Virus record (IMG/VR): IMGVR_UViG_3300049050_000058
Span: 1 to 55,854 of that record
From: a virus
Lineage: Duplodnaviria > Caudoviricetes
DNA: 55,854 nt
Reading direction: 5' to 3' (one strand)
This document shows, in pieces, positions 1,689 through 24,704 of the stretch. Under the pieces are notes generated by a model. It saw only the letters and a program-made list of their open reading frames with translations, was not told the origin of the DNA and did no database searches. The number at the start of each line of letters is the position of its first letter. Positions within the stretch are counted from its first letter, which is position 1. Both the position numbers and the translations under genes were made by a program.

Positions 1689-1970
1689 ATGAAACCAACT
1701 AAGCTTTACCATTGCACAACACCAAAGAAAGCAAAGCTTTACTCAGGAACTGGGCATATTTGTCTTCCTGTCAGGGGATTTGAAACATTTGAAGGGGCGC
1801 TAGCTTGGTGCGTCAAAACAGGAAGGACAGTGGTTTTAGAGATTAGTGGATGGGAGCAGGAAGACATTCACAAATTGCCAGACCATCATAACAAATTTTC
1901 CAATGCTTTTTGGGTTGACAGGAACGTAAACACATGGCACTGTGTGTTCAGTGCAGATAAAGACGCTTAA
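1689..1970 (+). CDS. hypothetical protein with N-terminal LYHCT motif
   Basis: GGAG SD; 93 aa. Confidence 0.75.
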   Translation: MKPTKLYHCTTPKKAKLYSGTGHICLPVRGFETFEGALAWCVKTGRTVVLEISGWEQEDIHKLPDHHNKFSNAFWVDRNVNTWHCVFSADKDA

Positions 1971-1985
1971 CCCTGAAGGTGATTT

Positions 1986-2573
1986 ATGTCTGGTTCAATT
2001 GGTCGTTCGTATCTTATTCAAAGCTGGAGTGATGCTAGTTCCTATTCTGGTGAAATGATCGGCAACAGGCTAAGTAAATCCAACGAGCTTTTTCTCCCGA
2101 GTGGGAAAGCAAATCTTGCTTTGTTTGATGAAGCTCCGAAAAAGAAACCTAAAGCTAAAAAACGTTCTATTGGGGATAGAATCGACTTGGCTAATGCTCA
2201 CTATGAGCGTATGGAAGCAATGAGCAATGAGCTAGACAATGCTTATTTTGCTGGTGAAATGGATAATGAGCGTTATGCATTGCTTCGTATCAAAATGAAT
2301 GAAAGGCTCCATAAGGCCTGGAAACGTCTTTCCAAGGAAAATGGGTGGGAAGAAAAACAATCCATTAATTCTATTGAAAATAAAAAACAAATAGAAAATA
2401 ACAATGAAAATAAATCCTTGACAAGCATTCTAGTGCAAGCTATTCTGTTCGTAACAAAACAGCTAATTAATAGGGTTACAGTAGACAAAAACGGGTTTAT
2501 TCTCTCAACCATAGCTACCCTACGTCCTGACAACAGCGTGCGTAAAATGTGTGAGAAACTACAGTTAATTTAG
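1986..2573 (+). CDS. hypothetical protein
   Basis: AAGGTG SD; 195 aa; internal TTGACA near 2418. Confidence 0.65.
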   Translation: MSGSIGRSYLIQSWSDASSYSGEMIGNRLSKSNELFLPSGKANLALFDEAPKKKPKAKKRSIGDRIDLANAHYERMEAMSNELDNAYFAGEMDNERYALLRIKMNERLHKAWKRLSKENGWEEKQSINSIENKKQIENNNENKSLTSILVQAILFVTKQLINRVTVDKNGFILSTIATLRPDNSVRKMCEKLQLI

Positions 2574-2583
2574 GAGATTTAAA

Positions 2584-2802
2584 ATGAAAAACTACTTCCC
2601 TATGATATTCGGCATGTCGCTTGGAGGATTTATATTCTCTATTTTAAATATTTTTGCGACACTTGAGCAGCCGAAAAAAGAACAAGTAGGATATGCATAT
2701 TCAGAGCTACAAGAAATGAAAAGAAAATGTGAGGAAGACTTGCCAAGAAAACAACAATGCACTATCCTTGTTCAATATCTGCCTCAACAGGAAGGAAAAT
2801 AA
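2584..2802 (+). CDS. membrane-anchored hypothetical protein
   Basis: AGGAG SD; N-terminal TM; two Cys. Confidence 0.75.
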   Translation: MKNYFPMIFGMSLGGFIFSILNIFATLEQPKKEQVGYAYSELQEMKRKCEEDLPRKQQCTILVQYLPQQEGK

Positions 2803-2804
2803 AG

Positions 2805-2933
2805 ATGAAAAAGCAATCTCAAAAAGAATCTAATTCTTGGATGTTTGAAGAAGAAAAGAAAATCTCTAAAAAACGGCATAAAGCTTTTCGTGATAATCGC
2901 AAAGCAAAACGTAATGTGTGGGAGAGTAATTAA
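2805..2933 (+). CDS. small basic protein (42 aa, not in ORF track)
   Basis: AAGGA SD; MKKQSQKESNSW... Confidence 0.55.
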   Translation: MKKQSQKESNSWMFEEEKKISKKRHKAFRDNRKAKRNVWESN

Positions 2934-3089
2934 ATGGGGATTATTAATTTTCTTGCATGTGTTTTCATGTGGTATACATTGTCTCCTATTTGGAAACACA
3001 TTCGAAAGAAAGAAAAAGCAGTAATTGCAGTAATTTTCCTTGTCAATGCCGGATATGTAGTGTATGATCTTTTCAAATTCCTAAGCTGA
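2934..3089 (+). CDS. small membrane protein (51 aa, not in ORF track)
   Basis: GGAG SD; MGIINFLACVFMWY... Confidence 0.55.
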   Translation: MGIINFLACVFMWYTLSPIWKHIRKKEKAVIAVIFLVNAGYVVYDLFKFLS

Positions 3090-3100
3090 AGGTGAATAAA

Positions 3101-3226
3101 ATGCGTTCTCTTGAACAATTTTACATTGGCAAAGCAATGGAATGCAAAGACAATAACGATATGTTTGGATATGCATATTGGATGCAATGTGCTTTTGATG
3201 TTTCTTCTATTGGAGAGGATATGTAA
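3101..3226 (+). CDS. small hypothetical protein (41 aa, not in ORF track)
   Basis: AAGGTG SD; fills gap exactly. Confidence 0.5.
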   Translation: MRSLEQFYIGKAMECKDNNDMFGYAYWMQCAFDVSSIGEDM

Positions 3227-3433
3227 ATGAACAATGAAATGTATGTTGTGATTGGTGAAGACAAAGAAACCAAAGTAACTTGGGTTTGTTCTAGAGAATC
3301 TTTTGATGACGCAGAGAATCAAATTACCCAAATCTTGAATAAAGAACAAGCAGAAAAACTTCTAAAAGAATTCAAAAACTCTTGGGGAAAGACTTGTTGT
3401 TATCGCATTGCAAAGCTTTCTTGGCTTGATTAA
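3227..3433 (+). CDS. hypothetical protein
   Basis: GAGG SD. Confidence 0.7.
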   Translation: MNNEMYVVIGEDKETKVTWVCSRESFDDAENQITQILNKEQAEKLLKEFKNSWGKTCCYRIAKLSWLD

Positions 3434-3455
3434 CAATTAACAGGAGAAAATTAAA

Positions 3456-3848
3456 ATGAATGCTGATGACGTTAAATACAAAATTGAAGTGATGCAAGCT
3501 TATGCTGAAGGGAAAGAGATTCAGTGGATTTGTAAACTTACTGACGAAGAGTGGGAGGACTGCCCGAATCCTGGGTTTAATTGGGCGAGGAACGACTATC
3601 GTGTTAAACCTGCTGAAAAGCCAAGTATTAATTGGGATCATGTTTCAGATAGATTTAATTATTTGACTCTAGATAACAAGGGTGAAATTGAATCAGCATG
3701 GCTTTATGCAAAAAAGCCTTTTTGGGATTATGGGTGGAATAGTGGAGAATCCGGAGATACTGTAGCTTCAGCTACCTTTTTTAAATCCCTCAATCCTGGC
3801 AATTGTGAACCAGAGGAAAGCCTTATCTGTCGTCCTGGGTTTGAATAG
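3456..3848 (+). CDS. phage hypothetical protein (IEVMQAYAEGKEIQ...FNW..YRVKP type)
   Basis: AGGAG SD; common phage early-protein motif. Confidence 0.8.
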   Translation: MNADDVKYKIEVMQAYAEGKEIQWICKLTDEEWEDCPNPGFNWARNDYRVKPAEKPSINWDHVSDRFNYLTLDNKGEIESAWLYAKKPFWDYGWNSGESGDTVASATFFKSLNPGNCEPEESLICRPGFE

Positions 3849-3898
3849 AAATCCTATGGATTTTCTCTGTTCAATTAAAACAATCAATGAATAATTTT

Positions 3899-3939
3899 TA
3901 GCCTCCTTGCTTGACAGCTTGGGGGCTTTTTGTTTTAAT
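3899..3939 (+). terminator. terminator hairpin with promoter -35 in its loop
   Basis: AGCCTCC...GGGGGCT + T run; TTGACA(3911)-17-TTTAAT. Confidence 0.55.
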
Positions 3940-3978
3940 TACTTCAACAACAAACGAAACCCCCTGGAGGGTAAGACA

Positions 3979-4260
3979 ATGAGTAGTTATTCTTTTTTCG
4001 TGGTAAGTGTCCGCAATCCTAGTATCCGTCCTGGAAGAATGACCCGCATAACGCAAGAAGAACGCGACAAGCTGAAACACGACCAACTTTTGTTTGCAAA
4101 TGCCGCAAACTGCCTCAAAGACAAGGCGCTATATTTCCATTTTCGTGATGGAGACGATAAAGGGAAAGCCTCCGCTAAGAAACAAGCGGAGGCAGCGGCT
4201 ACTAAATTTTCTAAACAGCTTTCCATCGAGTTGCAAGTCTGCGAGGGTTTCTTTCTGTAA
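3979..4260 (+). CDS. hypothetical protein
   Basis: GGAGG SD places start at 3979. Confidence 0.75.
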   Translation: MSSYSFFVVSVRNPSIRPGRMTRITQEERDKLKHDQLLFANAANCLKDKALYFHFRDGDDKGKASAKKQAEAAATKFSKQLSIELQVCEGFFL

Positions 4261-4284
4261 TCGCAGAAAATTCTACAAAAACGC

Positions 4285-4313
4285 TTGACACGTTCCACAA
4301 CAAACACTAATAT
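4285..4313 (+). promoter_or_regulatory. early sigma70 promoter
   Basis: TTGACA-17-TAATAT, A-rich upstream. Confidence 0.7.
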
Positions 4314-4353
4314 GAAGCTGTAAACAAAACACACGTCCTAGGAGGACAACAAA

Positions 4354-4491
4354 ATGACTATCGGAACTGGAATCGCTGTTGCAGGTGTATGGGTGATGGT
4401 TGGAATGGCTTTTATCAGCAAATCTACAACTAGTGCAGGTCTCTATCTTGCACTCGCAGTCGCAGCTATCGTAACCTCTGTAATTGTGTAA
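4354..4491 (+). CDS. small two-TM membrane peptide (45 aa, not in ORF track)
   Basis: AGGAGG SD; MTIGTGIAVAGVWVMVG...LYLALAVAAIVTSVIV. Confidence 0.7.
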   Translation: MTIGTGIAVAGVWVMVGMAFISKSTTSAGLYLALAVAAIVTSVIV

Positions 4492-4506
4492 AGAAGGAAA
4501 ATATAG

Positions 4507-4878
4507 ATGAACGCTAACGTAATTGCTCTGATTGCTTCTTTCGCTAAAACCAACAAAATCGGTAAGGCTAAAGTGGAGGTATTCGTCTCTGAGTTGGTGG
4601 AGATGCTTCCCCAAGCTTGGGGAAGCAAAGTGGGTCGTAAAGCTTCGCCTGAAACTGTAGAGCTTCGTAATAGTGTGATGGTGGCTCTTGATGAAATCAA
4701 AGACAAAACCTTCACTGTCAAGGAGGTGGCTGAAAAGCTGAAAGCTGAGCCTATCCATGTCCACAATGCTTTGAAATTCTTGAAAGAAAATAACAAAATT
4801 TCTCTTGACGTTGTAGGGAAAGCTCAGGTAGAATCTGGAAAACGTGGTAAGAAACCTGTTCTGTACAAAATAGCCTAA
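4507..4878 (+). CDS. winged-helix DNA-binding protein
   Basis: FTVKEVAEKL..HVHNALKFLKENNKI..GKRGKKPVLYKI pattern. Confidence 0.65.
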   Translation: MNANVIALIASFAKTNKIGKAKVEVFVSELVEMLPQAWGSKVGRKASPETVELRNSVMVALDEIKDKTFTVKEVAEKLKAEPIHVHNALKFLKENNKISLDVVGKAQVESGKRGKKPVLYKIA

Positions 4879-4916
4879 CCAACGGTTAGGCTTCATGAAC
4901 AAAGGAGTTTTGAAGA

Positions 4917-5126
4917 ATGCAACCCATGTACATTCTCCGTAATAGCTATTCAAACGAAGTCGAATATCTGAAAAGCGTTAAGATGAAAGAAACAAAATTT
5001 ACGGAAAAAGCAATTGAAGCTATGCATTTTTGCGATGAATCTTCGGCCCGTGAATTTGCAGAAGACTTGGCATCTGTAGGAATTTATTGCAGAGTTATTC
5101 TTGCTGGTCGGGATTGGGTGGTGTGA
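4917..5126 (+). CDS. hypothetical protein
   Basis: AAGGAG SD. Confidence 0.7.
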   Translation: MQPMYILRNSYSNEVEYLKSVKMKETKFTEKAIEAMHFCDESSAREFAEDLASVGIYCRVILAGRDWVV

Positions 5127-5127
5127 T

Positions 5128-5313
5128 ATGAAATATCAATTGGAAATTATCCCGCTGAGTGGCTTTCAGGATGAACATTTGGAAGTTTTCCGTAGTGAGT
5201 TGGAATTGAAAAACTGGCTCATTGACAACGATTTCAAATCTCACGTAAAATTCACTGACTACCAAGGGTTTATTTCACCTGCTGGTGATATCGCAATCTG
5301 GAGAACTCAGTAA
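5128..5313 (+). CDS. hypothetical protein
   Basis: ATG just after previous stop. Confidence 0.65.
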   Translation: MKYQLEIIPLSGFQDEHLEVFRSELELKNWLIDNDFKSHVKFTDYQGFISPAGDIAIWRTQ

Positions 5314-5456
5314 TGAATATTCACTTGCAAGCCATGATTGAGCGTGCTAGCATCTCTGAAATTGAAAAGGCAATGAAAGTAGCTTTTCTGTTTTCCCCTA
5401 GCTTCTACAAGGCGCTTGAGAAAGAAAAACAAAAGAAAATGCAAAATAATGGTTGA
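5313..5456 (+). CDS. small hypothetical protein (47 aa, not in ORF track)
   Basis: TAATG overlap, GGAG SD. Confidence 0.55.
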   Translation: MNIHLQAMIERASISEIEKAMKVAFLFSPSFYKALEKEKQKKMQNNG

Positions 5457-5481
5457 CAGGCTGTAAACTCCATGTGATGAT
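5453..5481 (+). promoter_or_regulatory. early sigma70 promoter
   Basis: TTGACA-17-GATGAT. Confidence 0.55.
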
Positions 5482-5530
5482 ACACACATCAAAGACAGGT
5501 AGTAGCTAGAAGCTACAGAGGAAAGAGAAA

Positions 5531-5788
5531 ATGAATATTCATGGCGTTATGGAATATGGCTATATTGTTGCTTCCCATGAGGACCTCGACATTTTGATTA
5601 CTGTCAATGGTGCATATTATAATATTTGGTGTGGTGACTTTAACGGTAACTACAGCAACACGGATTGCCGTGCAACAGGATTCGATAATGGCTTGTATGG
5701 CCAGGATATAGTTAAAGTGACAGAAAAGGCTGAAACAATCCTTGAAGAAATCATCAACGGGATTGATGAAGAACAGGAAGACGAGTAA
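5531..5788 (+). CDS. acidic hypothetical protein
   Basis: GAGG SD. Confidence 0.75.
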   Translation: MNIHGVMEYGYIVASHEDLDILITVNGAYYNIWCGDFNGNYSNTDCRATGFDNGLYGQDIVKVTEKAETILEEIINGIDEEQEDE

Positions 5789-5847
5789 GTGGTGATGAAA
5801 AGGGGCTTTTTAATGTCTAAAATTTATAAAAATTCTTCAAAAATAGC

Positions 5848-5876
5848 TTGCATCACTCCCAAAGCTTCGCTAGAAT
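5848..5876 (+). promoter_or_regulatory. early sigma70 promoter
   Basis: TTGCAT-17-TAGAAT, UP-like AT tract. Confidence 0.7.
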
Positions 5877-5929
5877 GAGCACAACAAAGCAAGAAAGTTT
5901 CTCCAAACAATCAGCATAGGATACCAATC

Positions 5930-6166
5930 ATGAAAGCTTCCAAAGGTTATAACGGATTCAAAAATTACAACCAATGGAATATCTCGCTTTGGATCAACAA
6001 TGATGAGGTTTTGTATCGGATGGCTAAGGAATACATAGGCACCTACAAGCGTAATGAAGCAGCACAAGCAATGCTTGATGATCTGCGGGAGTATGGTATC
6101 ACTCACACACAAGATGGTGTAAAGTGGTCTAAAGCTGGCATCCTGGCTGCAATGGTAGGAATGTAA
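5930..6166 (+). CDS. phage early protein (YNGFKNYNQWNISLWINNDE motif)
   Basis: widespread phage motif; AGGA SD. Confidence 0.8.
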   Translation: MKASKGYNGFKNYNQWNISLWINNDEVLYRMAKEYIGTYKRNEAAQAMLDDLREYGITHTQDGVKWSKAGILAAMVGM

Positions 6167-6173
6167 AATATAC

Positions 6174-6270
6174 GAGGTTGTAGCTTAATTTAAAAGCAGC
6201 GGGGAACACAGAGGCTTCACGAAAGCTAATGCATCCGTCAATGTGGGTGAAACCCCCACCAACCTCACCT
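6174..6270 (+). ncRNA. tRNA-like RNA with expanded, branched anticodon arm
   Basis: Acceptor GAGGTTG/CAACCTC; D-arm GCT..AGC; T-arm GTGGG-TGAAACC-CCCAC; ~30-nt insert replaces the 7-nt anticodon loop; ends ACCT. Confidence 0.7.
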
Positions 6271-6277
6271 TATTCCT

Positions 6278-6305
6278 AAGCCCTCTCCACCGAGGGCTTT
6301 CTTAT
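6278..6305 (+). terminator. intrinsic terminator
   Basis: AAGCCCTC-loop-GAGGGCTT + T-rich tail. Confidence 0.8.
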
Positions 6306-6339
6306 ATCTAAATTCTTTTAAATTTTCTACAGAAAAGGC

Positions 6340-6367
6340 TTGCATCTGATTCCTCAAGCTGTATAAT
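6340..6367 (+). promoter_or_regulatory. early sigma70 promoter
   Basis: TTGCAT-16-TATAAT with TG; leader GAACCCATAGAAAGCAAACAA. Confidence 0.75.
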
Positions 6368-6410
6368 GAACCCATAGAAAGCAAACAACCCCGACACAAG
6401 GAATACTGAA

Positions 6411-6590
6411 ATGACCACCTACTTGAACCTCAAAACCTCCCAAGGTCGTGAAACTGTAGACCAGATCGACAAGCAAGAGGGACAATCTAACAAGGAACAT
6501 CGTGCGTATGTTCGTGATATGGTGAAAGAATATCACTTGGCTGGAATGAATGTTTACACTAGCTCCCGCTGCTGCTCCAACTGGAAATAA
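6411..6590 (+). CDS. hypothetical protein (59 aa, not in ORF track)
   Basis: AAGGA SD; MTTYLNLKTSQGRETVD...SSRCCSNWK. Confidence 0.75.
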   Translation: MTTYLNLKTSQGRETVDQIDKQEGQSNKEHRAYVRDMVKEYHLAGMNVYTSSRCCSNWK

Positions 6591-17962: not shown

Positions 17963-18147
17963 TGATTTTCCTCCATTGCTTTCTTTAAAGCTTCTCTTAC
18001 AGTTGTTCCATGATAAAGTTTTTCACTGTATACATCGTTGTCTGAAGATATTGTTACAAGATAACCATCAACAACATAAAGAATTTCAACTTGTTGGTGT
18101 AGTGTACTCATTTTCTCTAACCAGTCAATCATTTTACTATCGCTCAT
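17959..18147 (-). CDS. hypothetical protein (MSDSKMIDWLEK...REALKKAM)
   Basis: AGGAG SD gives start 18147. Confidence 0.75.
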   Translation of the reverse strand: MSDSKMIDWLEKMSTLHQQVEILYVVDGYLVTISSDNDVYSEKLYHGTTVREALKKAMEENQ

Positions 18148-18164
18148 CGGTCGTTCTCCTGGGG

Positions 18165-18374
18165 CTATTCGCAGCGGAAAACTTCCGCGCACACTGATTG
18201 AAAATCTCGCTTGGTTTTTGCCGGATCGCGGCCAAACCACTCTTCTGCATTGCGCGCCAGATCTTCCCTGGCCTCTGACCATCCGCCACCTCGCCGGATA
18301 GCCAGAACTCGCACTTGGTCGCCAAGGGTCTTGCACCTCGACAGGCGTGTTTCTGAGCAGAGGAATACTCCCAT
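18165..18374 (-). CDS. GC-rich hypothetical protein (MGVFLCSETRLSRCK...)
   Basis: GGGGTG SD directly after the upstream stop. Confidence 0.6.
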   Translation of the reverse strand: MGVFLCSETRLSRCKTLGDQVRVLAIRRGGGWSEAREDLARNAEEWFGRDPAKTKRDFQSVCAEVFRCE

Positions 18375-18375
18375 C

Positions 18376-19179
18376 TCACACCCCCTCGCCCTTGGCCAGA
18401 TGCGGCGCAGCCTCAAACAAAGCATCGAGCAGGGCGTCCACGTTGCGTGCGTCACACCAGTCCAGGCCCTGCGGATCGTTTTCGTACAGCCACGCGCTTG
18501 CGGCCTTGGCCATGGCTTCGCGGGCACCTTCCGGCATCACCACCGCCCTCTGCTGTTCGGATGCAGGCGGGGTGGGGGCGGAACGTGAGTTCAGACGCCT
18601 AGCCTCTGAGACACCATCTCGCCAGCCAGCGTCATAAGCAGGGCTGCACGAACTCAGTGCTACCGGATCAATCCACTCATCATCCGGCACCCCAGCAGCA
18701 GCAGGCGGGGCGGAGAGCGCGGCAACCCGTTTCTCCAGCTCGCCGACGACTTCGAACCAATTGGCGTTGTCGACCTCAAGCCCCGCTAGGGTTGCGAGCC
18801 GCTTAAACAGATCGCCCAGGTTGTAGTTGGCATCGTCATGTCTGGCCATGATGCGCTGATGTTGGGCAACGGTCATCAGGGGCACACGACCCTCGTATTG
18901 CTCTGAGCTAACGCCGAACGAATGCGAGAATCCGTCCTGTACCAGATCGTCAGGGTTGGCCCAAGCAACCACTTCCACCTCTTCCCCATCCTGGATATGG
19001 GCAGGGGATTTAAAAAGCGGATCGGCATCAATAAAAACTTCATCAGGAACATCTTCATATCCTTCACGAATAGCTTCAAAATCACCTTCACTCCACAGCC
19101 TTAGAAACCACATCGAATCAGAAGGTCCATCACATTTTTCAAGTGCATACTTAATTGCTGCTACTGCTGAATCATTCAT
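18376..19179 (-). CDS. mosaic hypothetical protein, AT-rich 5' part and GC-rich remainder
   Basis: AGGAG SD gives start 19179; composition switches near 19020. Confidence 0.75.
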   Translation of the reverse strand: MNDSAVAAIKYALEKCDGPSDSMWFLRLWSEGDFEAIREGYEDVPDEVFIDADPLFKSPAHIQDGEEVEVVAWANPDDLVQDGFSHSFGVSSEQYEGRVPLMTVAQHQRIMARHDDANYNLGDLFKRLATLAGLEVDNANWFEVVGELEKRVAALSAPPAAAGVPDDEWIDPVALSSCSPAYDAGWRDGVSEARRLNSRSAPTPPASEQQRAVVMPEGAREAMAKAASAWLYENDPQGLDWCDARNVDALLDALFEAAPHLAKGEGV

Positions 19180-19894
19180 TTGTATTCTCCTTTTTAGATT
19201 GTTTCGGGACAAGATCGTATTTCTTTTTAATTTCAGCTACGCCTTGCTTGATTCCATTTTGCACAGCTTGTTTGATTTCGTCAAGTAGGTTGAATTGCTC
19301 TTCTGGCTCTTCATCCTCTTCTTGAACACTTTCAACTAAAGTTTGCCGATAATCATACATTTTCTCAAGACGTTCTGCAAGCTGGTCAGCATCAAAATAA
19401 AACGGAGTACCTTTGATAACATCTTCTAAATCATCAGGGCTCAGAAAACCACTATACACATCTTCATACAACTTACGAAGCTGTTTTCGTGAGAAATTGG
19501 CATGTTCATAAATATCTGTATCTTTTGCCATTAACCCATATGTGCTCGTGTGGATCATCAGATTTGACGTATCATCAAGGACATGTTCCCTACACGACAA
19601 AGCAAGAATACTACCCGCAGAGCTACAAGCAGGACCAATAATTGCTACAGTGTGTGCTGGAGTATTGAACAATGCTCGTTTAAAAAGCATTGCTGTGTCT
19701 AGTATACCACCATCTGTGCAAATATCTAACACAATTGTGTCCATTTCTGTAGCAGTGTTAATTAGATTCAATTCGTCAAGATAATCCCCAGGATTTCCAA
19801 TATCTTCATAAATTTGAATAACGTGAGTATTTGCTACTGTTTGATTAGTTGAAATACGTGATGGTTTTTGCATCAGGTTATCATCATTTCGCAT
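19172..19894 (-). CDS. ClpP-like serine protease
   Basis: TDGG, ACSAGS, LMIH motifs. Confidence 0.85.
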   Translation of the reverse strand: MRNDDNLMQKPSRISTNQTVANTHVIQIYEDIGNPGDYLDELNLINTATEMDTIVLDICTDGGILDTAMLFKRALFNTPAHTVAIIGPACSSAGSILALSCREHVLDDTSNLMIHTSTYGLMAKDTDIYEHANFSRKQLRKLYEDVYSGFLSPDDLEDVIKGTPFYFDADQLAERLEKMYDYRQTLVESVQEEDEEPEEQFNLLDEIKQAVQNGIKQGVAEIKKKYDLVPKQSKKENTNE

Positions 19895-20686
19895 TTAAAT
19901 CTCCTTAATATTTTCAGCAGAACCTTCTTTTTCAAAGATTTCAACAAAAGCTCGGGTCAAACCTGATCTTACAATGTCTGCTGGGGTAAATTCAACCACA
20001 GAGCAGTTTGGAAGATTGTGTTTTTTAATCAGATTTGCAAGGTATACAATACCAGAAACACCTTTCACGTCTCGTTGTTTATCATCTCCACAAAATGCTA
20101 CCTGACTTCCTTCTTCCAGTCGAGTGACAATTGAACGAACCTCTTCAACTGACAAATTCTGAGATTCATCGAGAATCAAAAATGTCCCTGAAGGGAAAGA
20201 CATGCCACGAATAGCCTCTAGTGGTTGGATTTTAATTGTTTTACTAAATTCTGCTTGATATCGATGATCCCCAATTCGTTCTCTGATGACGTTAAGGATT
20301 GGTGCAACATACGGAGCAAGTTTTTCCTCCACACTCCCAGGCCAGAAGCCTGTGCTTTTCCCCATCGGAACATAAGCCCTGGCAACAATAATTTGTTTAA
20401 TCTCACCTTTCAAATATTTATTTGCAGCTACAGCCGCTGCACACCACGTTTTACCGCTTCCGGCACTTCCTTTCCCAACACTAACAGTATCGAATTGAAG
20501 ACTGTGTAGATATTTTTTCTGATTTTCATTCTTCGCAATAATTGGTTTTGCTTTATGTTCTTCTGCAAATTTCTCTTTAACTTCAGGTTTCACTCCACCA
20601 TTACGAGTTTTACGAGTGCGTTTACGTGGTACTTCAACTTCAATGCCATCTATTTCAAGCTTAATCATTCGATCCCGGGCACCCAT
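19895..20686 (-). CDS. phoH: PhoH-family ATPase
   Basis: GSAGSGKT, RGMSF, ILDESQN, GDDKQRD, DIVRSGL. Confidence 0.92.
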   Translation of the reverse strand: MGARDRMIKLEIDGIEVEVPRKRTRKTRNGGVKPEVKEKFAEEHKAKPIIAKNENQKKYLHSLQFDTVSVGKGSAGSGKTWCAAAVAANKYLKGEIKQIIVARAYVPMGKSTGFWPGSVEEKLAPYVAPILNVIRERIGDHRYQAEFSKTIKIQPLEAIRGMSFPSGTFLILDESQNLSVEEVRSIVTRLEEGSQVAFCGDDKQRDVKGVSGIVYLANLIKKHNLPNCSVVEFTPADIVRSGLTRAFVEIFEKEGSAENIKEI

Positions 20687-20687
20687 G

Positions 20688-20882
20688 TTAAATTCCTTCT
20701 GCTTGTTTAATAATTTCAAAAACTTGTTTTACGTAGTCAGGAACATTATCTTCTTCGATTTCAAGAATTTCTGATTCTGTGTCAATAACTTTTTTATCAT
20801 AATACTTAAGTGTAACAAGGTCTTGAACATATCCCGAAGTTACAAAACCAATGGTTACATGAAACTCAATTTTATTTTTCAA
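20688..20882 (-). CDS. hypothetical protein
   Basis: AAGGA SD, TTG start overlapping upstream stop. Confidence 0.6.
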   Translation of the reverse strand: MKNKIEFHVTIGFVTSGYVQDLVTLKYYDKKVIDTESEILEIEEDNVPDYVKQVFEIIKQAEGI

Positions 20883-21196
20883 TTTAGATTTCCTTTTTCT
20901 AGGGAAAACATTTCAATGTAAGGGAGAATCACTTCACTCATATTGAAATACAGATTTTCAACAGCTTTTTGGTATTTGTTATAGTCTTCTGAGTTATAGA
21001 AATCATCCACAGCTTTCATGCTTTCTTCTGTAGCTTCTTTCTTAAAATTCTTAAGAAGTTTTTCAGCTTCTTTTTCAAAGCTTTTACTATCCACCAAAGC
21101 TACAGCTTGATTATATTCTTCATCATCTTGCACTACAACCGCTGCTGCATGCTTTAGAGCATTTTTGATGGCCAATTCAACTTGTTCAGAATTCAT
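20879..21196 (-). CDS. hypothetical protein
   Basis: GGAG SD. Confidence 0.7.
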   Translation of the reverse strand: MNSEQVELAIKNALKHAAAVVVQDDEEYNQAVALVDSKSFEKEAEKLLKNFKKEATEESMKAVDDFYNSEDYNKYQKAVENLYFNMSEVILPYIEMFSLEKGNLN

Positions 21197-21666
21197 TAGT
21201 TTTCTCCATTAGTTTTTAAGATAGCTTGAGTCATCACTTCACGAGAACGATTGAAGCAATCAAGGGATTTTCCAACTTCTTTCAACTCTTCATAGCTCAT
21301 GTTCTCTAGCTGTTCACGAGTGTACTTGATATTTGAAGAATGGTCAAGATTGACAAATTCACACGTTTTGAAGTGCATAAAATTATAATTCAAGCTGTCA
21401 TAGTTTGGTGAATAACCCTGGATAACAAGCTGTTGGAATTTCTTTACAAAATCATATTTATCTCGTTCAGAAATAAACACTGTAACTTCTTTGGTGTAAT
21501 CAATTGTATCAAGTTGTTCTACGAAATAAACATCCAATTGCAACATTCCAGTAGACCATTCTGTAATATCTGATTTGTTTTCCAGAAAATGATAACCTTG
21601 TTTGATAGCGTTTTCAAACTCTGAAAACACATTAACAGGGTTGGACCCAATAATCAATTTTTCCAT
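21196..21666 (-). CDS. hypothetical protein with C-terminal Rho-N/HeH-like helical motif
   Basis: YTREQLENMSYEELKEVGKSL pattern. Confidence 0.7.
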   Translation of the reverse strand: MEKLIIGSNPVNVFSEFENAIKQGYHFLENKSDITEWSTGMLQLDVYFVEQLDTIDYTKEVTVFISERDKYDFVKKFQQLVIQGYSPNYDSLNYNFMHFKTCEFVNLDHSSNIKYTREQLENMSYEELKEVGKSLDCFNRSREVMTQAILKTNGEN

Positions 21667-21667
21667 T

Positions 21668-21874
21668 TCACTTCTCCTTATCACTCAGTAGAAAATCTGC
21701 AATCCCAACCAATAGCCAAACAGGCCAAAATAGTGAAAGAGTCCAGACAATTACCGATAGAAAAACACCCTCTTTAATCTCTCTATGCTTAACCATATCT
21801 GCAACTACAGCTCTACTAAATTTATGTGTAATCAGTAGATATAAAGCCGTTAAAACAATGTATATGATAGTCAT
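21668..21874 (-). CDS. membrane protein
   Basis: two TM segments, LFWPV motif. Confidence 0.7.
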   Translation of the reverse strand: MTIIYIVLTALYLLITHKFSRAVVADMVKHREIKEGVFLSVIVWTLSLFWPVWLLVGIADFLLSDKEK

Positions 21875-22164
21875 TATTTATTCTCCTGCACGGCTGTATC
21901 AATTTCGTTAAGAGCGCGACACATTTCAGCGTCAAAATATTCTGGTGTGTGACCGAAATCCCTTACAGATCCTTCACGCAGTCTCCGGTAGATCAATGCA
22001 TCTTTCCGAAGTGATTCACATTCTTCCTCAAGGTCTTCTAAGAAAATATTTAAGCTTGCACATTTATCCCTAAGGCGAGAAATTTCGTCTCTTGCTGCCG
22101 AATTCAGAGTCCCAAGACGCATAATTTCATCTTTGAGGTAGTCACAATCAGTTTTATCATTCAT
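21874..22164 (-). CDS. coiled-coil hypothetical protein (LRKDAxxYRxLR)
   Basis: AGGAG SD. Confidence 0.7.
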   Translation of the reverse strand: MNDKTDCDYLKDEIMRLGTLNSAARDEISRLRDKCASLNIFLEDLEEECESLRKDALIYRRLREGSVRDFGHTPEYFDAEMCRALNEIDTAVQENK

Positions 22165-22325
22165 TTAAAATCTCCTTTCAATTTATCAATCGCTTCCTCA
22201 ACAATCACACCAGCAATGTACAGCTTCATAATATGCTTTGCTTGTTCATCAGTCAAGGTGTGAACAGAAAAATGTGTCTTCACTTCATCACAATATTTTT
22301 GGAAAGAAATCATTTTTGTAGCCAT
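22161..22325 (-). CDS. small hypothetical protein (54 aa, not in ORF track)
   Basis: AAGGAGG SD; first gene after leftward promoter. Confidence 0.7.
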   Translation of the reverse strand: MATKMISFQKYCDEVKTHFSVHTLTDEQAKHIMKLYIAGVIVEEAIDKLKGDFK

Positions 22326-22355
22326 TATGGATTCCTCCTTTGTTTACGTTCTCTC

Positions 22356-22383
22356 ATTGTACCACAAATTTTTGTAAGGTCAA
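22356..22383 (-). promoter_or_regulatory. leftward sigma70 promoter
   Basis: TTGACC-16-TACAAT with TG. Confidence 0.7.
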
Positions 22384-22416
22384 CACACCACATCAAAAAT
22401 ATTTTTAACAGAGAGC

Positions 22417-22444
22417 TTGCAAAATCCTGAATACATGATATAAT
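22417..22444 (+). promoter_or_regulatory. rightward sigma70 promoter
   Basis: TTGCAA-16-TATAAT with TG. Confidence 0.7.
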
Positions 22445-22448
22445 ATGA

Positions 22449-22825
22449 CCCGTATGTAGAGAGAAATCTCTACTCGGAATGAGAGAGATATGTGGTGCCA
22501 CAAGGCCATGCTCACCGACTCACTCTTAAAGAGAAGAAGATAGCACATGCTCAAACTGTGGGATTGTGAGGCTATAACAGTGTGCAGACCTCGTGCAAGA
22601 GGGAAATAGCCAAGTGAAGAGATTTGCATAAGAGACTTCACCGATGCACTTGACAGGATCAGGTGTCCAGCTTAGGCTGGCTACGTTATGACGACTCAGA
22701 GAGATGTTGTTGAGGTAGATTGCAGAATCATAATGTTTCCTCTAAGGCAGGCATTGGTCTGTATGGGGAGATAAGGGATTCTTCAATCTACTTATTCTGA
22801 TCTAGAGAGATGTGTATACTACATA
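22449..22825 (+). ncRNA. candidate long structured non-coding RNA/leader
   Basis: no credible ORF; many consecutive and nested stems including a GAAA tetraloop. Confidence 0.55.
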
Positions 22826-22837
22826 GGAGAAAAATAG

Positions 22838-23365
22838 TTGAACTTAAAAGAATATCTAAATATAAGAAATGCTAAGATGAAAAGTAAGAAAGCTCTTTCT
22901 AACAAAGAAGCAAAAGCTCTTGGCATCAGGATTAACACTAAAGGGTGGTATGAAGCGAATAAAGAATTGAAAATAGACGACGAACGTCTCTATAAAATGA
23001 TTAAAGACGTTCTAAAATCTAATACGATAGATACAAGATGTAAATCTCAGTTGGAACCCTTACTTCACTTTTCTGAAGATTTTGATGAACAACTGTTGTA
23101 TTTAATGGAAAACTCTTTCGGTTACAGAAAGATAGGTATAAGTAAAAACCCAAGAAAACGTGCAATGTCTTTGAGTAATTCGTCTGGTATTTCTGTTTGG
23201 ATGATTGCATACTGGAAAGTCAAATCCAAAGCGTTTGATGTAGAGCAATATTTACACAGACAGTTTATGGATTTCAGAGTAAAGGGAGAGTGGTTTTTAA
23301 AAGAAAACATTACAGTTGATAGCATTGAGAAAAATATCAAATGTGAGTATCAAAGGCTACTGTAA
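22838..23365 (+). CDS. GIY-YIG superfamily nuclease (T5orf172/MUG113-like)
   Basis: LYLM..KIGISKNPRKR..VEQYLHRQF..RVKGEWF; AGGAG SD. Confidence 0.85.
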   Translation: MNLKEYLNIRNAKMKSKKALSNKEAKALGIRINTKGWYEANKELKIDDERLYKMIKDVLKSNTIDTRCKSQLEPLLHFSEDFDEQLLYLMENSFGYRKIGISKNPRKRAMSLSNSSGISVWMIAYWKVKSKAFDVEQYLHRQFMDFRVKGEWFLKENITVDSIEKNIKCEYQRLL

Positions 23366-23573
23366 GCAGTATAGGGTTTCTTTTACCTGCTACTTTTCAA
23401 ACCAAGAGAATGATTAAATACTACTAAGCAGGTAAGAGGTAAGGAGAAACGTGGAAGGATAAGTTAGTAAATACAATAGAAATAATTTCAACATATATTG
23501 ACTTTCGCTAGTATGAATATGTAATAATACACTTAATGACCAGAACAACAATAACAAACAGGAATTTAAGTGT

Positions 23574-23783
23574 ATGAAATGTTTAGCTTGTGACTGCTTC
23601 CTTAGAGAATCAGAATTGAATATGAAAAAAGAAGATGGTAGTTTTGAAGATATGTGTACAGATTGTCGTAGAGTTTCATACGGACATGAATACATGGAAA
23701 TCAGAGAATATCAATTCCAACATCTAACAGAGATGATCCAAAACTACTTTTATATGAAAAATATTCAATCAGAATACGATTAA
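23574..23783 (+). CDS. small Zn-finger protein (CxxC...CxxC)
   Basis: MKCLACD...DMCTDCR; AGGA SD. Confidence 0.75.
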   Translation: MKCLACDCFLRESELNMKKEDGSFEDMCTDCRRVSYGHEYMEIREYQFQHLTEMIQNYFYMKNIQSEYD

Positions 23784-24324: not shown

Positions 24325-24473
24325 TTCAGGGCGACCTGATATCTTCGACTATTGCCTAGTCCCGAAGAAACTAATACATAAAACCAACTTATGTATTTTT
24401 ATTGTGGAGAGGGAAGACATTTTGGTCTTTCAGTGTCAGAAGACAGGAAGCGTGGTCTCTGACAAATATTTAT

Positions 24474-24549
24474 GTTTGGGTAGCTCAATTGGCAGAGCAA
24501 CGGTCTCCAAAACCGTAGGTTGTTGGTTCAACTCCAACCCCATTCGCCA
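24474..24549 (+). tRNA. tRNA-Trp (CCA)
   Basis: ACGGT-CTCCAAA-ACCGT; TTCAACT loop; encoded CCA; two U-U mismatches in acceptor stem. Confidence 0.85.
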
Positions 24550-24555
24550 TTTCTT

Positions 24556-24627
24556 GCATCCGTACCCAAGTGGAATGGGACCAATTTTGTAAGTTGGAAG
24601 CCGTCAGTTCAAATCTGACCGGATGCT
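24556..24627 (+). tRNA. tRNA-Thr (TGT)
   Basis: GCATCCG/CGGATGC; CCAAT-TTTGTAA-GTTGG; TTCAAAT; no full CCA. Confidence 0.85.
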
Positions 24628-24629
24628 CC

Positions 24630-24704
24630 GCGTTCATAGTTTAATTGGCAAAACCCTAGACTTCCAATCTAGTGTTCCCAGATCGTTACTGGGTGGACGC
24701 TCCA
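24630..24704 (+). tRNA. tRNA-Gly (TCC)
   Basis: GCGTTCA/TGGACGC, U discriminator, CTAGA-CTTCCAA-TCTAG, CCA; T-loop ATCGTTA. Confidence 0.88.

Follow-up and report, generated by a model that had tools for sequence, protein, structure and literature searches.

What connects a large folded RNA to the nuclease gene that lies directly behind it in a phage genome? The question is raised by a locus in a 55,854-base record of an uncultured virus (IMGVR_UViG_3300049050_000058; this whole stretch is here called the window), which is estimated to be 62% complete and whose structural genes are similar, at 60–80% nucleotide identity, to those of Pseudomonas and Vibrio myoviruses. The list of open reading frames (ORFs) of the window holds no plus-strand ORF of at least 30 aa in 22449–22837, and the gene that follows encodes a 175-aa protein with a nuclease domain of the T5orf172 type. 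A preliminary description, made from the letters alone, had seen here a promoter-driven RNA tiled with stems and had joined it to the nuclease as a single module, offering as a second option a large phage non-coding RNA (ncRNA) invaded by an endonuclease. It is the second option that fits best. We lean towards an explanation in which an autonomous structured leader or ncRNA has a free-standing homing-type endonuclease lodged behind it, the cassettes being swapped between phages by recombination.

A folded RNA without an Rfam counterpart

The folded RNA, of ~340–380 nt, is real, has no counterpart in Rfam and possesses a notably complex fold. The plus strand of the leader folds at −125.3 kcal/mol (z −3.65), a value equalled by none of 100 shuffles; the minus strand reaches z −1.46, equalled by 9 of 100. 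All stems named in the preliminary description are recovered in the minimum free energy (MFE) fold or in the consensus fold, and its claim of an undescribed structured RNA is upheld by covariation, by the fold of the plus strand and by the lack of an Rfam match. Searched with Rfam at E≤10, the interval 22300–23600 gives only sub-threshold chance rows (GAIT, HOTAIR_2, FTX_2 and sR60), and five related loci at E≤1 give only tRNAs. The group I model RF00028 likewise finds nothing at E≤10 in 22300–23600, in agreement with the earlier remark that a group I core is missing.

The loci of nuclease relatives were compared within IMG/VR, where 80 of 105 relatives were retained; seven of these 80 match nearly the full query (residues 1–3 to 168–175), namely L008, L009, L010, L011, L012, L013 and L016. 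The conserved body of the RNA, which we call type A (22483–22829, plus strand), is delimited by its identity to the loci L091 and L016/L089 and by the consensus fold with its covariation, and these two further contigs are those in which it recurs, at 76–84% identity. L091 was reached among metagenome records by a 19-mer from the RNA and is 81.9% identical over window positions 22483–22805. L016 sits in the contig L089 (14.4 kb), and its RNA core is matched by blastn at 77.7% over 256 nt (22554–22804, 184 bits). L089 is syntenic with the window yet distant (PhoH 34%, nuclease 33% identical), and of the blastn segments that the two share, that of the RNA scores best. Members of the family are 76–85% identical in phages whose proteins are 34–60% identical, and the contigs and runs that bear the RNA are labelled soil, freshwater and marine.

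Applied to the window, L091 and L016, RNAalifold yields 90 pairs, 13 of which have changed on both sides. In the model structure with its loop-loop contact, which was derived from these same three sequences, 94.9% of 272 cells pair, against 34–39% when partners are slid. The covariation by which the preliminary description had proposed to check the RNA is found in 14 of 91 pairs, which change on both sides, against 0–2 with slid partners, and none of 500 shuffles attains any of five pairing measures.

The elements of the fold, all on the plus strand, can be followed from its 5' end. A hairpin GUAGAGA-GAAA-UCUCUAC (22456–22473) is present in the same form in the close relative L002 and is the last element common to both before their sequences part; a pattern scan for it finds the L002 contig only. 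Within the body, helix H1 (22492–22522) pairs GUGG 22492–22495 with UCAC 22519–22522 and changes on both sides in two of its four pairs, reading AUAG/CUAU in L016. Hairpin Pa (22544–22568; CACA..CUCA/UGGG..UGUG) is mostly invariant, with some unpaired cells in L016. Hairpin Pb (22570–22611), a feature of the consensus fold, is built from GGCUAU/AUAGCC, a conserved internal loop, and CCUC/GAGG closing the loop GUGCAA; the CCUC/GAGG pairing becomes CAUC/GAUG in L016. In hairpin Pc (22614–22641; GUGAAG/CUUCAC, with UUGCAU in its loop) three of seven pairs change on both sides. Pd (GCACUUGA/UCAGGUGU) and Pe (CCAGC/GCUGG), two hairpins that together span 22646–22680, show replacement of G-U by A-U and a single pair altered on both sides. 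The 3' domain (22713–22793) comprises an outer helix, GAAUC/GAUUC, helix B (UGUUUCCUC/GGGGAGAUA), hairpin C (GCAGGC/GUCUGU) and a conserved UGUAUGG.

The ends of the RNA are brought together by a terminal helix, proposed already in the preliminary description, in which UAUGUAG 22453–22459 pairs with CUACAUA 22819–22825 in the MFE fold. The 3' strand of this helix abuts the Shine-Dalgarno sequence AGGAG (22825–22829) of the following gene. RNAalifold offers an alternative long-range helix from 22819–22829 to 22489–22497, with four pairs changed on both sides.

A kissing contact is proposed between the Pb loop (GUGCAA, 22593–22598) and the Pc loop (UUGCAU, 22624–22629) on the grounds of complementarity and covariation. 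Two leaders of other types, those of L012 (which is the L002 contig) and L010, share modules with type A in a manual, coordinate-based comparison: a short hairpin with a 6–7-nt loop is followed after 11–15 nt by a hairpin with a 13–16-nt loop. The two loops are complementary in all five leaders, over 6 bp in the window, L091, L016 and L012 and over 5 bp in L010. They read GUGCAA or AUGCAA against UUGCAU in type A, GUAAGA against UCUUAC in L012 and GUAAG against CUUAC in L010, with three positions changing on both sides between types. The nested topology of the 3' domain and its UGUAUGG are also alike in the five. Plus-strand fold z-scores are −3.05 for L091, −5.02 for L016, −4.73 for L010 and −2.52 for L002. 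A further leader in L013 (2530–2967), 438 nt long and poor in ORFs (z −1.98), stands upstream of a 262-aa nuclease homologue and contains a helix like helix B of L010 as well as GAAUGAU-like motifs; it may be a more divergent member, and we do not assign it to the family.

A near-identical strain found in a public DNA run (X8) differs from the window at 22593 (G>A), 22643 (G>A) and 22675 (G>T). These three variants fall in loops or junctions or turn G-U into A-U pairs, and no helix is broken; the change at 22593 converts the G-U pair of the kissing contact to A-U. The contigs from four DNA runs, all of them short and of low depth, stem from the same phage or a near one and show no joints.

Beyond these loci the searches made disclosed no other carriers of the RNA. 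A covariance model of the three type A sequences (R1), run over 82 sources (525,038 bases), returned only its own three sequences and reverse-strand echoes; the true matches of pattern scans were confined to L091 and the L016 contig (L089/L092), those in L088, L090 and L093 being chance occurrences in unrelated coding DNA. A scan of genome contigs for the RNA gave none, and among 50,697 phage records blastn matched none of the RNA-plus-nuclease stretches from the window, L010 and L012. Searches of the literature on T5orf172 and noncoding RNA, and on phage structured RNA and homing endonucleases, yielded no description of the leader RNA, the candidate lists of PMC10690425 being outside this survey. 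Two other identities were considered for the stretch and rejected: a conserved small ORF inside the RNA, whose frames differ between the window and L091 and which has no AUG at that place in L016, and a retron or defence-associated reverse transcriptase (DRT), no RVT_1 being present in G000 or G001.

Promoter and borders of the locus

Gene orientation flips at 22330–22450, with minus-strand ORFs to the left and plus-strand genes next. The junction carries a sigma70-type promoter with a TG extension (TTGCAA-16-TATAAT, 22417–22444, plus strand), which agrees with 10 of 12 consensus positions, and the promoter scan places a divergent promoter-like site for the leftward genes (TTGACC-16-TACAAT) at 22356–22383 on the minus strand. 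The scan of the whole window gave 11 promoter-like sites against 10.2 expected from shuffles, a count so near chance that the consensus match at 22417–22444 is by itself no evidence. The promoter is supported instead by the recurrence of its hexamers TTGCAA/TATAAT in L002/L012 and by strong extended −10 promoters directly 5' of the related leaders in L016, L010, L091 and L013. It probably drives both the leader RNA and the nuclease ORF, and the window scan detects no terminator-like site between them. The locus is a divergent transcription junction, and the minimum of the cumulative GC skew falls in the 20001–22000 bin.

At the other border, the preliminary description had extended the structured element past the nuclease ORF. 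The 12-nt inverted repeat on which this was based exists (23380–23391/23427–23438, plus strand, 92% complementary), and its membership in the RNA is unsupported by the relatives: it is cassette-specific, falls in a 115-nt stretch that is missing from L002 and has no T-run of a terminator.

The nuclease

The protein encoded behind the RNA (22838–23365, plus strand, TTG start) joins a helical N-terminal domain (aa 1–80) to a T5orf172/MUG113 domain of predicted GIY-YIG fold (aa 82–175). The earlier assignment of a T5orf172-type domain is confirmed by Pfam, which matches residues 88–165 to MUG113 (E 6e-12) and T5orf172 (E 2.5e-7); PF13455 at 46.4 bits (cut-off 22.3) and PF10544 at 31.6 bits (cut-off 20) both exceed their curated cut-offs. 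A profile built from the nucleases of the window and L002 collects 2,708 relatives (E≤1e-3) from 1.84 billion representative sequences, and many of the top-ranked matches are nearly full-length. Invariant in 49 family members are Y88, K98, G100, P105, R108, E136 and G150-E151-W152; we take the conserved Tyr, Arg and Glu positions to be active-site residues.

The AlphaFold model of the protein (pLDDT 95.3) suggests that the nuclease domain has the GIY-YIG fold: residues 82–175 align to HIGLE with Z 7.5 (root-mean-square deviation 2.8, 86 aa), and weaker matches of this domain are to Slx1 (Z 6.6 and 5.9), I-TevI (Z 3.8) and UvrC (Z 3.2). Foldseek alone returned nothing at E≤1e-3 for the model. 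For the N-terminal domain (residues 1–80) structural matches are weak and non-specific, at Z 5.2 or lower, and Pfam at E≤1 gives chance-level matches only. The PHROG family 'homing endonuclease' matches at E 6e-5. Two other searches added no further relatives, tblastn with the nuclease matching 33 records by the nuclease domain alone, none with at least 80% query coverage, and a word-index protein search returning only the query itself.

According to PMC10448857, phage T5orf172 genes are modular, recombining homing endonuclease genes (HEGs), and such nuclease genes are placed at boundaries of genetic exchange between phages. Most of them, as stated there, carry a Zn-finger (CapR/DUF723/DUF4397) or a RepA_N domain; those with a RepA_N fusion are described as attacking the origins of satellites, and GIY-YIG homing enzymes as recognising DNA via protein domains.

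Exchange of the cassette between close relatives

L002 was reached through a flanking protein that is 93% identical to its counterpart in the window. The flanks of the two genomes are 90.8–97.8% identical, and identity runs through the promoter and the 5' hairpin and ends at 22481. From there a variable cassette (22482–23479, plus strand), composed of the RNA body, the nuclease gene and the 115-nt tail, has no blastn counterpart in L002. In its place, behind the shared promoter and hairpin, L002 carries a different ~930-nt cassette of the same layout, with ~370 nt of different ORF-free sequence followed by a 181-aa protein that is 32% identical to the window nuclease over the full length. The nuclease thus sits at the margin of a tract that has been exchanged among close relatives, and the pattern of nucleases at exchange boundaries given in PMC10448857 is what the comparison of the window with L002 shows.

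Two other places differ between these genomes. Positions 21880–22155 form a second short stretch without an L002 blastn match, a 96-aa gene being replaced by a different 70-aa ORF in L002. The window also has four tRNA genes on the plus strand (820–891 and 24474–24701), three of them ~1.1 kb downstream of the nuclease, and this tRNA block differs as well, 24470–24623 having no blastn match in L002. The interval 18001–20000 is a GC-rich island, with a GC content of 0.47 in a genome of ~0.34–0.41.

RNA and nuclease occur apart

Do the RNA and the nuclease belong to each other? Small genes unrelated to the nuclease come after the RNA in L091, namely a 56-aa ORF, a cREC_REC protein and a tRNA, and the family hidden Markov model finds no nuclease in the 6,958 nt examined of this 90,988-nt contig. 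The converse holds for L008, L009 and L011, where a full-length nuclease homologue stands directly behind a 158–160-aa ORF and no RNA of this kind is present. This ORF matches DUF6945 (E 8.4e-7) and phrog_8102, 'replication initiation protein' (E 4.7e-9), and L008 shares with the window a downstream 144-aa gene. Altogether eight loci with a full-length nuclease, the window included, can be compared: in four the gene lies behind a member of the RNA family, in one (L013) behind the unassigned structured leader, and in three behind neither.

Where both are present, they have not diverged together. The RNA cores of the window and L016 are 76% identical and their nucleases 33%; in the near-identical genomes of the window and L002 the RNA and the nuclease both differ. 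The type of the RNA does not follow that of the nuclease, and on these comparisons an obligate or RNA-guided RNA-nuclease module is not supported. The central proposal of the preliminary description is thereby set aside. Homologous nucleases lacking the upstream element, which it had named as telling against that proposal, are found in three loci (L008, L009 and L011), and covariation, whose absence it had named alongside, is nonetheless present.

The surroundings of these loci show features of their own. In L091 the stretch 1877–6526, on a TARA contig, contains besides the 56-aa ORF the cREC_REC (cyclic-phosphate processing receiver) protein, a tRNA at 3015–3090 and an ORF whose sequence, read by eye, resembles that of an RNA ligase; the neighbourhood is like one of RNA repair. 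The DUF6945/phrog_8102 ORF occupies 2510–2992 in L008 and 2511–2987 in L011, and upstream of it lie a conserved ~41-aa ORF and repeated GTCCTATAC-like sites.

A direct repeat around the 3' domain

The 3' domain is framed by a direct repeat, of which copy 2 (22693–22707; GACUCA followed by GAGAGAUGU) lies just 5' and copy 3 (22799–22813; GAUCUA followed by GAGAGAUGU) just 3' of it, both on the plus strand. The UCAGA within copy 2 (22696–22700) can pair with UCUGA 22796–22800. Each of the five RNAs has its longest exact internal direct repeat on either side of the 3' domain: AGAGAGATGT at 22698 and 22804 in the window, AACAGAATGATT at 2854 and 2960 in L016, AGGAATAT at 1731 and 1836 in L091 (tied at 8 nt with two others), ATCGGAATG at 2829 and 2960 in L012 (tied at 9 nt with one other) and ATTGGGATG at 2780 and 2948 in L010. 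Within one RNA the copies are identical; from RNA to RNA they differ, the remaining sequence being 76–85% alike.

By number alone the repeat is unremarkable, since AGAGAGATGT at no more than one mismatch has 4 matches in the window against 5.1 expected; it appears to be only the clustering and the recurrence in relatives that make it notable. As complement in cis only 3–5 bp were found. In L091 and L016 a constant UAUUCUG can pair with either repeat copy, and this dual pairing suggests a switch. CsrA-type GGA sites, considered as another meaning of the repeats, are absent from those of the window and L016.

Discussion

How could this arrangement have come about? We propose that the RNA of ~340–380 nt would fold autonomously as the first product of a rightward operon at the divergent promoter junction. 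A long-range helix would join its 5' and 3' ends around five hairpins, two of them apparently kissing through their loops, and the conserved 3' domain, and the ribosome-binding site of the next gene, whichever this is, would emerge directly behind the fold. The RNA may act mainly in cis, as a leader stabilising or gating the downstream message, and the constant segment UAUUCUGA may pair alternatively with the repeat copy before or after the 3' domain. A homing-type T5orf172 gene of predicted GIY-YIG fold would have settled between the RNA and the next promoter, where it would use the promoter of the RNA, and the stretch with RNA and nuclease would be traded between phages by recombination. Such exchange leads one to expect near-identical phages with different cassettes and distant phages that share the RNA. 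The structure and conservation of the RNA, its separability from the nuclease and the replacement of the cassette are observed directly; homing activity, the target of the nuclease and the role of the RNA are what we infer from them.

Several points weigh against this explanation, in whole or in part. The separation of RNA and nuclease in L091 comes from a different genome context, of which 6,958 of 90,988 nt were covered. The association in four of eight loci, together with L013, exceeds what random insertion would give and could reflect either a functional link or a preference of homing sites; these co-occurrence counts are themselves biased, because most RNA loci were found via the nuclease. 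No empty allele is seen among the syntenic relatives, L002 and L089 each carrying a nuclease. As regards the RNA, the derivation of the tested structure from the same three sequences favours the measure of cells paired. The R1 model did not detect the leaders of L002/L012 or L010, and no consensus of the five 3' domains came from MAFFT with RNAalifold, which left the types unaligned, so that homology between types rests on the manual, coordinate-based comparison. As regards a role in cis, L091 and L016 leave the Shine-Dalgarno sequence unsequestered, a switch or leader function leaves the concerted variation of the repeat unaccounted for, and no RNA sequencing run with the stretch is listed among the public runs.

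The closest known systems to the nuclease are the free-standing T5orf172/GIY-YIG HEGs (ICP1), with which it shares the domain above cut-off, the GIY-YIG fold and the combination of a specificity-type with a nuclease domain. It is likewise intergenic and borders a tract in which near-identical phages differ. The T4 Seg proteins are free-standing GIY-YIG homing endonucleases as well. It differs from the reported T5orf172 HEGs in that its N-terminal domain is unlike the Zn-finger (CapR/DUF723/DUF4397) or RepA_N domains given in PMC10448857, an exclusion made because no Pfam match at E≤1 rises beyond chance. It differs also in that no empty allele was seen in the syntenic relatives of the window, and homing is here a prediction. 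The PeSL (promoter-early stem-loop) cassettes of T4-type phages, as presented in PMC2839356, likewise have a strong sigma70-type promoter and a stem-loop at a conserved left edge, and on the right another intergenic region that is conserved separates the swapped part from the following gene. The unit at 22380–22490 of the window, in contrast, is unrepeated: blastn-short finds itself and chance matches of up to 17 nt in the 62% of the genome available. Moreover, a large structured RNA and a nuclease are swapped here instead of small ORFans, and a terminator role of the hairpin in the window is putative.

For the RNA, riboswitch-class leaders provide the nearest comparison; those of the lysine, cobalamin and T-box types are large structured RNAs with loop-loop contacts. 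Like them, the RNA lies between promoter and ribosome-binding site, has a multi-helix junction closed over a long range and a kissing contact, and offers possible alternative pairings beside the expression platform. Unlike them, it has no Rfam match, precedes mutually unrelated genes and suggests no ligand, and its concertedly varying internal direct repeat is foreign to those classes. Covariation-supported RNAs upstream of genes in uncultured, IMG/VR-type phage contigs have likewise been catalogued by Fremin et al. 2023 (PMC10690425), who list 10,006 candidates and name no nuclease-associated motif in the main text.

Another possibility for the nature of the RNA is a stable trans-acting molecule, a ribozyme or the scaffold of a ribonucleoprotein, released from the 5' end of its transcript by cleavage, with the repeats as specificity or processing elements and the nuclease as a mere neighbour. 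Such a role would suit the covarying kissing contact, the conserved unpaired junctions, the conserved UGUAUGG internal loop, the 76–85% conservation across phages with proteins 34–60% identical, the variation of the downstream gene from locus to locus, and the position of repeat copy 2 of L091 in the loop of an ACUCA/UGAGU hairpin. Still, neither a terminator nor a known processing signal lies between RNA and ORF, there is no match to a known ribozyme or other Rfam family, and the window holds no plus-strand complement of the repeat elsewhere at up to one mismatch; we regard this role as unlikely, albeit deserving of attention. Appreciably less probable is a replication-origin or incompatibility module, in which a purine-rich transcript would prime or license replication from iteron-like repeats and the T5orf172 protein would be an origin-directed nuclease acting against rival alleles. 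Transcript-primed replication has models in ColE1 RNA II and in the origin R-loops of T4. The RNA starts at the divergent junction with the lowest cumulative GC skew, the repeats are identical within and different between elements, L008, L009 and L011 have a replication-initiation-like ORF where the window has the RNA (L008 with the shared 144-aa downstream gene), and T5orf172-RepA_N fusions are described as acting against satellite origins (PMC10448857). The skew signal, however, is confounded, as its switch coincides with that of gene orientation; there are only two or three repeat copies, 105–168 nt apart and in no tandem array; covariation with G-U pairs and a loop-loop contact speaks for a folded RNA rather than for sites in DNA; and L091 has the repeats without a nuclease in the 6,958 nt examined. 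It is a matter of speculation, to which we attach just as little probability, that a new class of large tertiary-structured RNA forms the core of such an origin, with programmable repeats, swappable with a protein-initiator module (L008, L011), and that the nuclease kills rival alleles and so drives the swaps. A single-strand DNA origin signal, an alternative named in the preliminary description, is disfavoured by the G-U pairs and by the strand asymmetry of the fold.

The remaining explanations tie the RNA more closely to the nuclease. That the RNA guides, activates or autoregulates the T5orf172 nuclease through its N-terminal domain would agree with the four of eight full-length loci, possibly five with L013, that lie directly behind a long structured leader, with a domain that has no assigned function and only non-specific structural matches (Z ≤5.2), and with a short variable element inside a conserved scaffold. 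It seems very improbable in view of the RNA without nuclease in L091, the nucleases without RNA in L008, L009 and L011, the discrepancy between window and L016 (RNA 76% alike, nuclease 33%), the lack of any HEARO, omega-RNA or other Rfam match, and the reading of DNA by protein domains in GIY-YIG homing enzymes (PMC10448857). The analogy to HEARO/omega RNA-IscB, drawn at the outset, extends to a ~300-nt structured RNA beside a small nuclease gene on a mobile stretch. It fails in the fold of the nuclease, GIY-YIG here instead of RuvC/HNH, in the separate occurrence and missing co-divergence of the two parts, and in the Rfam search, where no such scaffold turned up in the window region (E≤10) or in the five related loci (E≤1). 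Least probable of all is that the endonuclease mRNA is served by a self-splicing intron of group I-like kind, degenerate or atypical, or by a ribozyme of the lariat-capping type. The size of the element, its multi-helix fold and its place directly 5' of an endonuclease ORF recall the GIR1 arrangement, in which a lariat-capping ribozyme stands directly 5' of the endonuclease ORF, and the same genome does contain a group I intron (RF00028, 35294–35571, plus strand, 83.7 bits against a gathering threshold of 50, E 6.9e-20). This intron serves as a positive control that makes the Rfam null at the leader (window at E≤10, five related loci at E≤1) credible. Furthermore, no gene is interrupted, the locus being bordered by the promoter and a divergent gene on the left and an intergenic region before the next gene on the right, and the RNA also precedes genes other than endonucleases.

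Few large RNAs have conserved tertiary contacts, and among those known are many ribozymes, riboswitches and ribonucleoprotein scaffolds. On the explanation favoured here, of an autonomous leader or ncRNA with a homing-type gene lodged behind it, a new RNA heads an operon in uncultured myovirus-like phages and stands outside the Rfam families. Its repeat, identical within and different between RNAs, may mark a specificity element. For annotation, the comparison removes a tempting and unsupported reading as an 'RNA-guided GIY-YIG nuclease'. The locus provides a clean natural case of a T5orf172 nuclease placed where genetic exchange between phages has its boundary, one in which the conserved neighbour, possibly the homing target, is an RNA gene instead of a protein gene.

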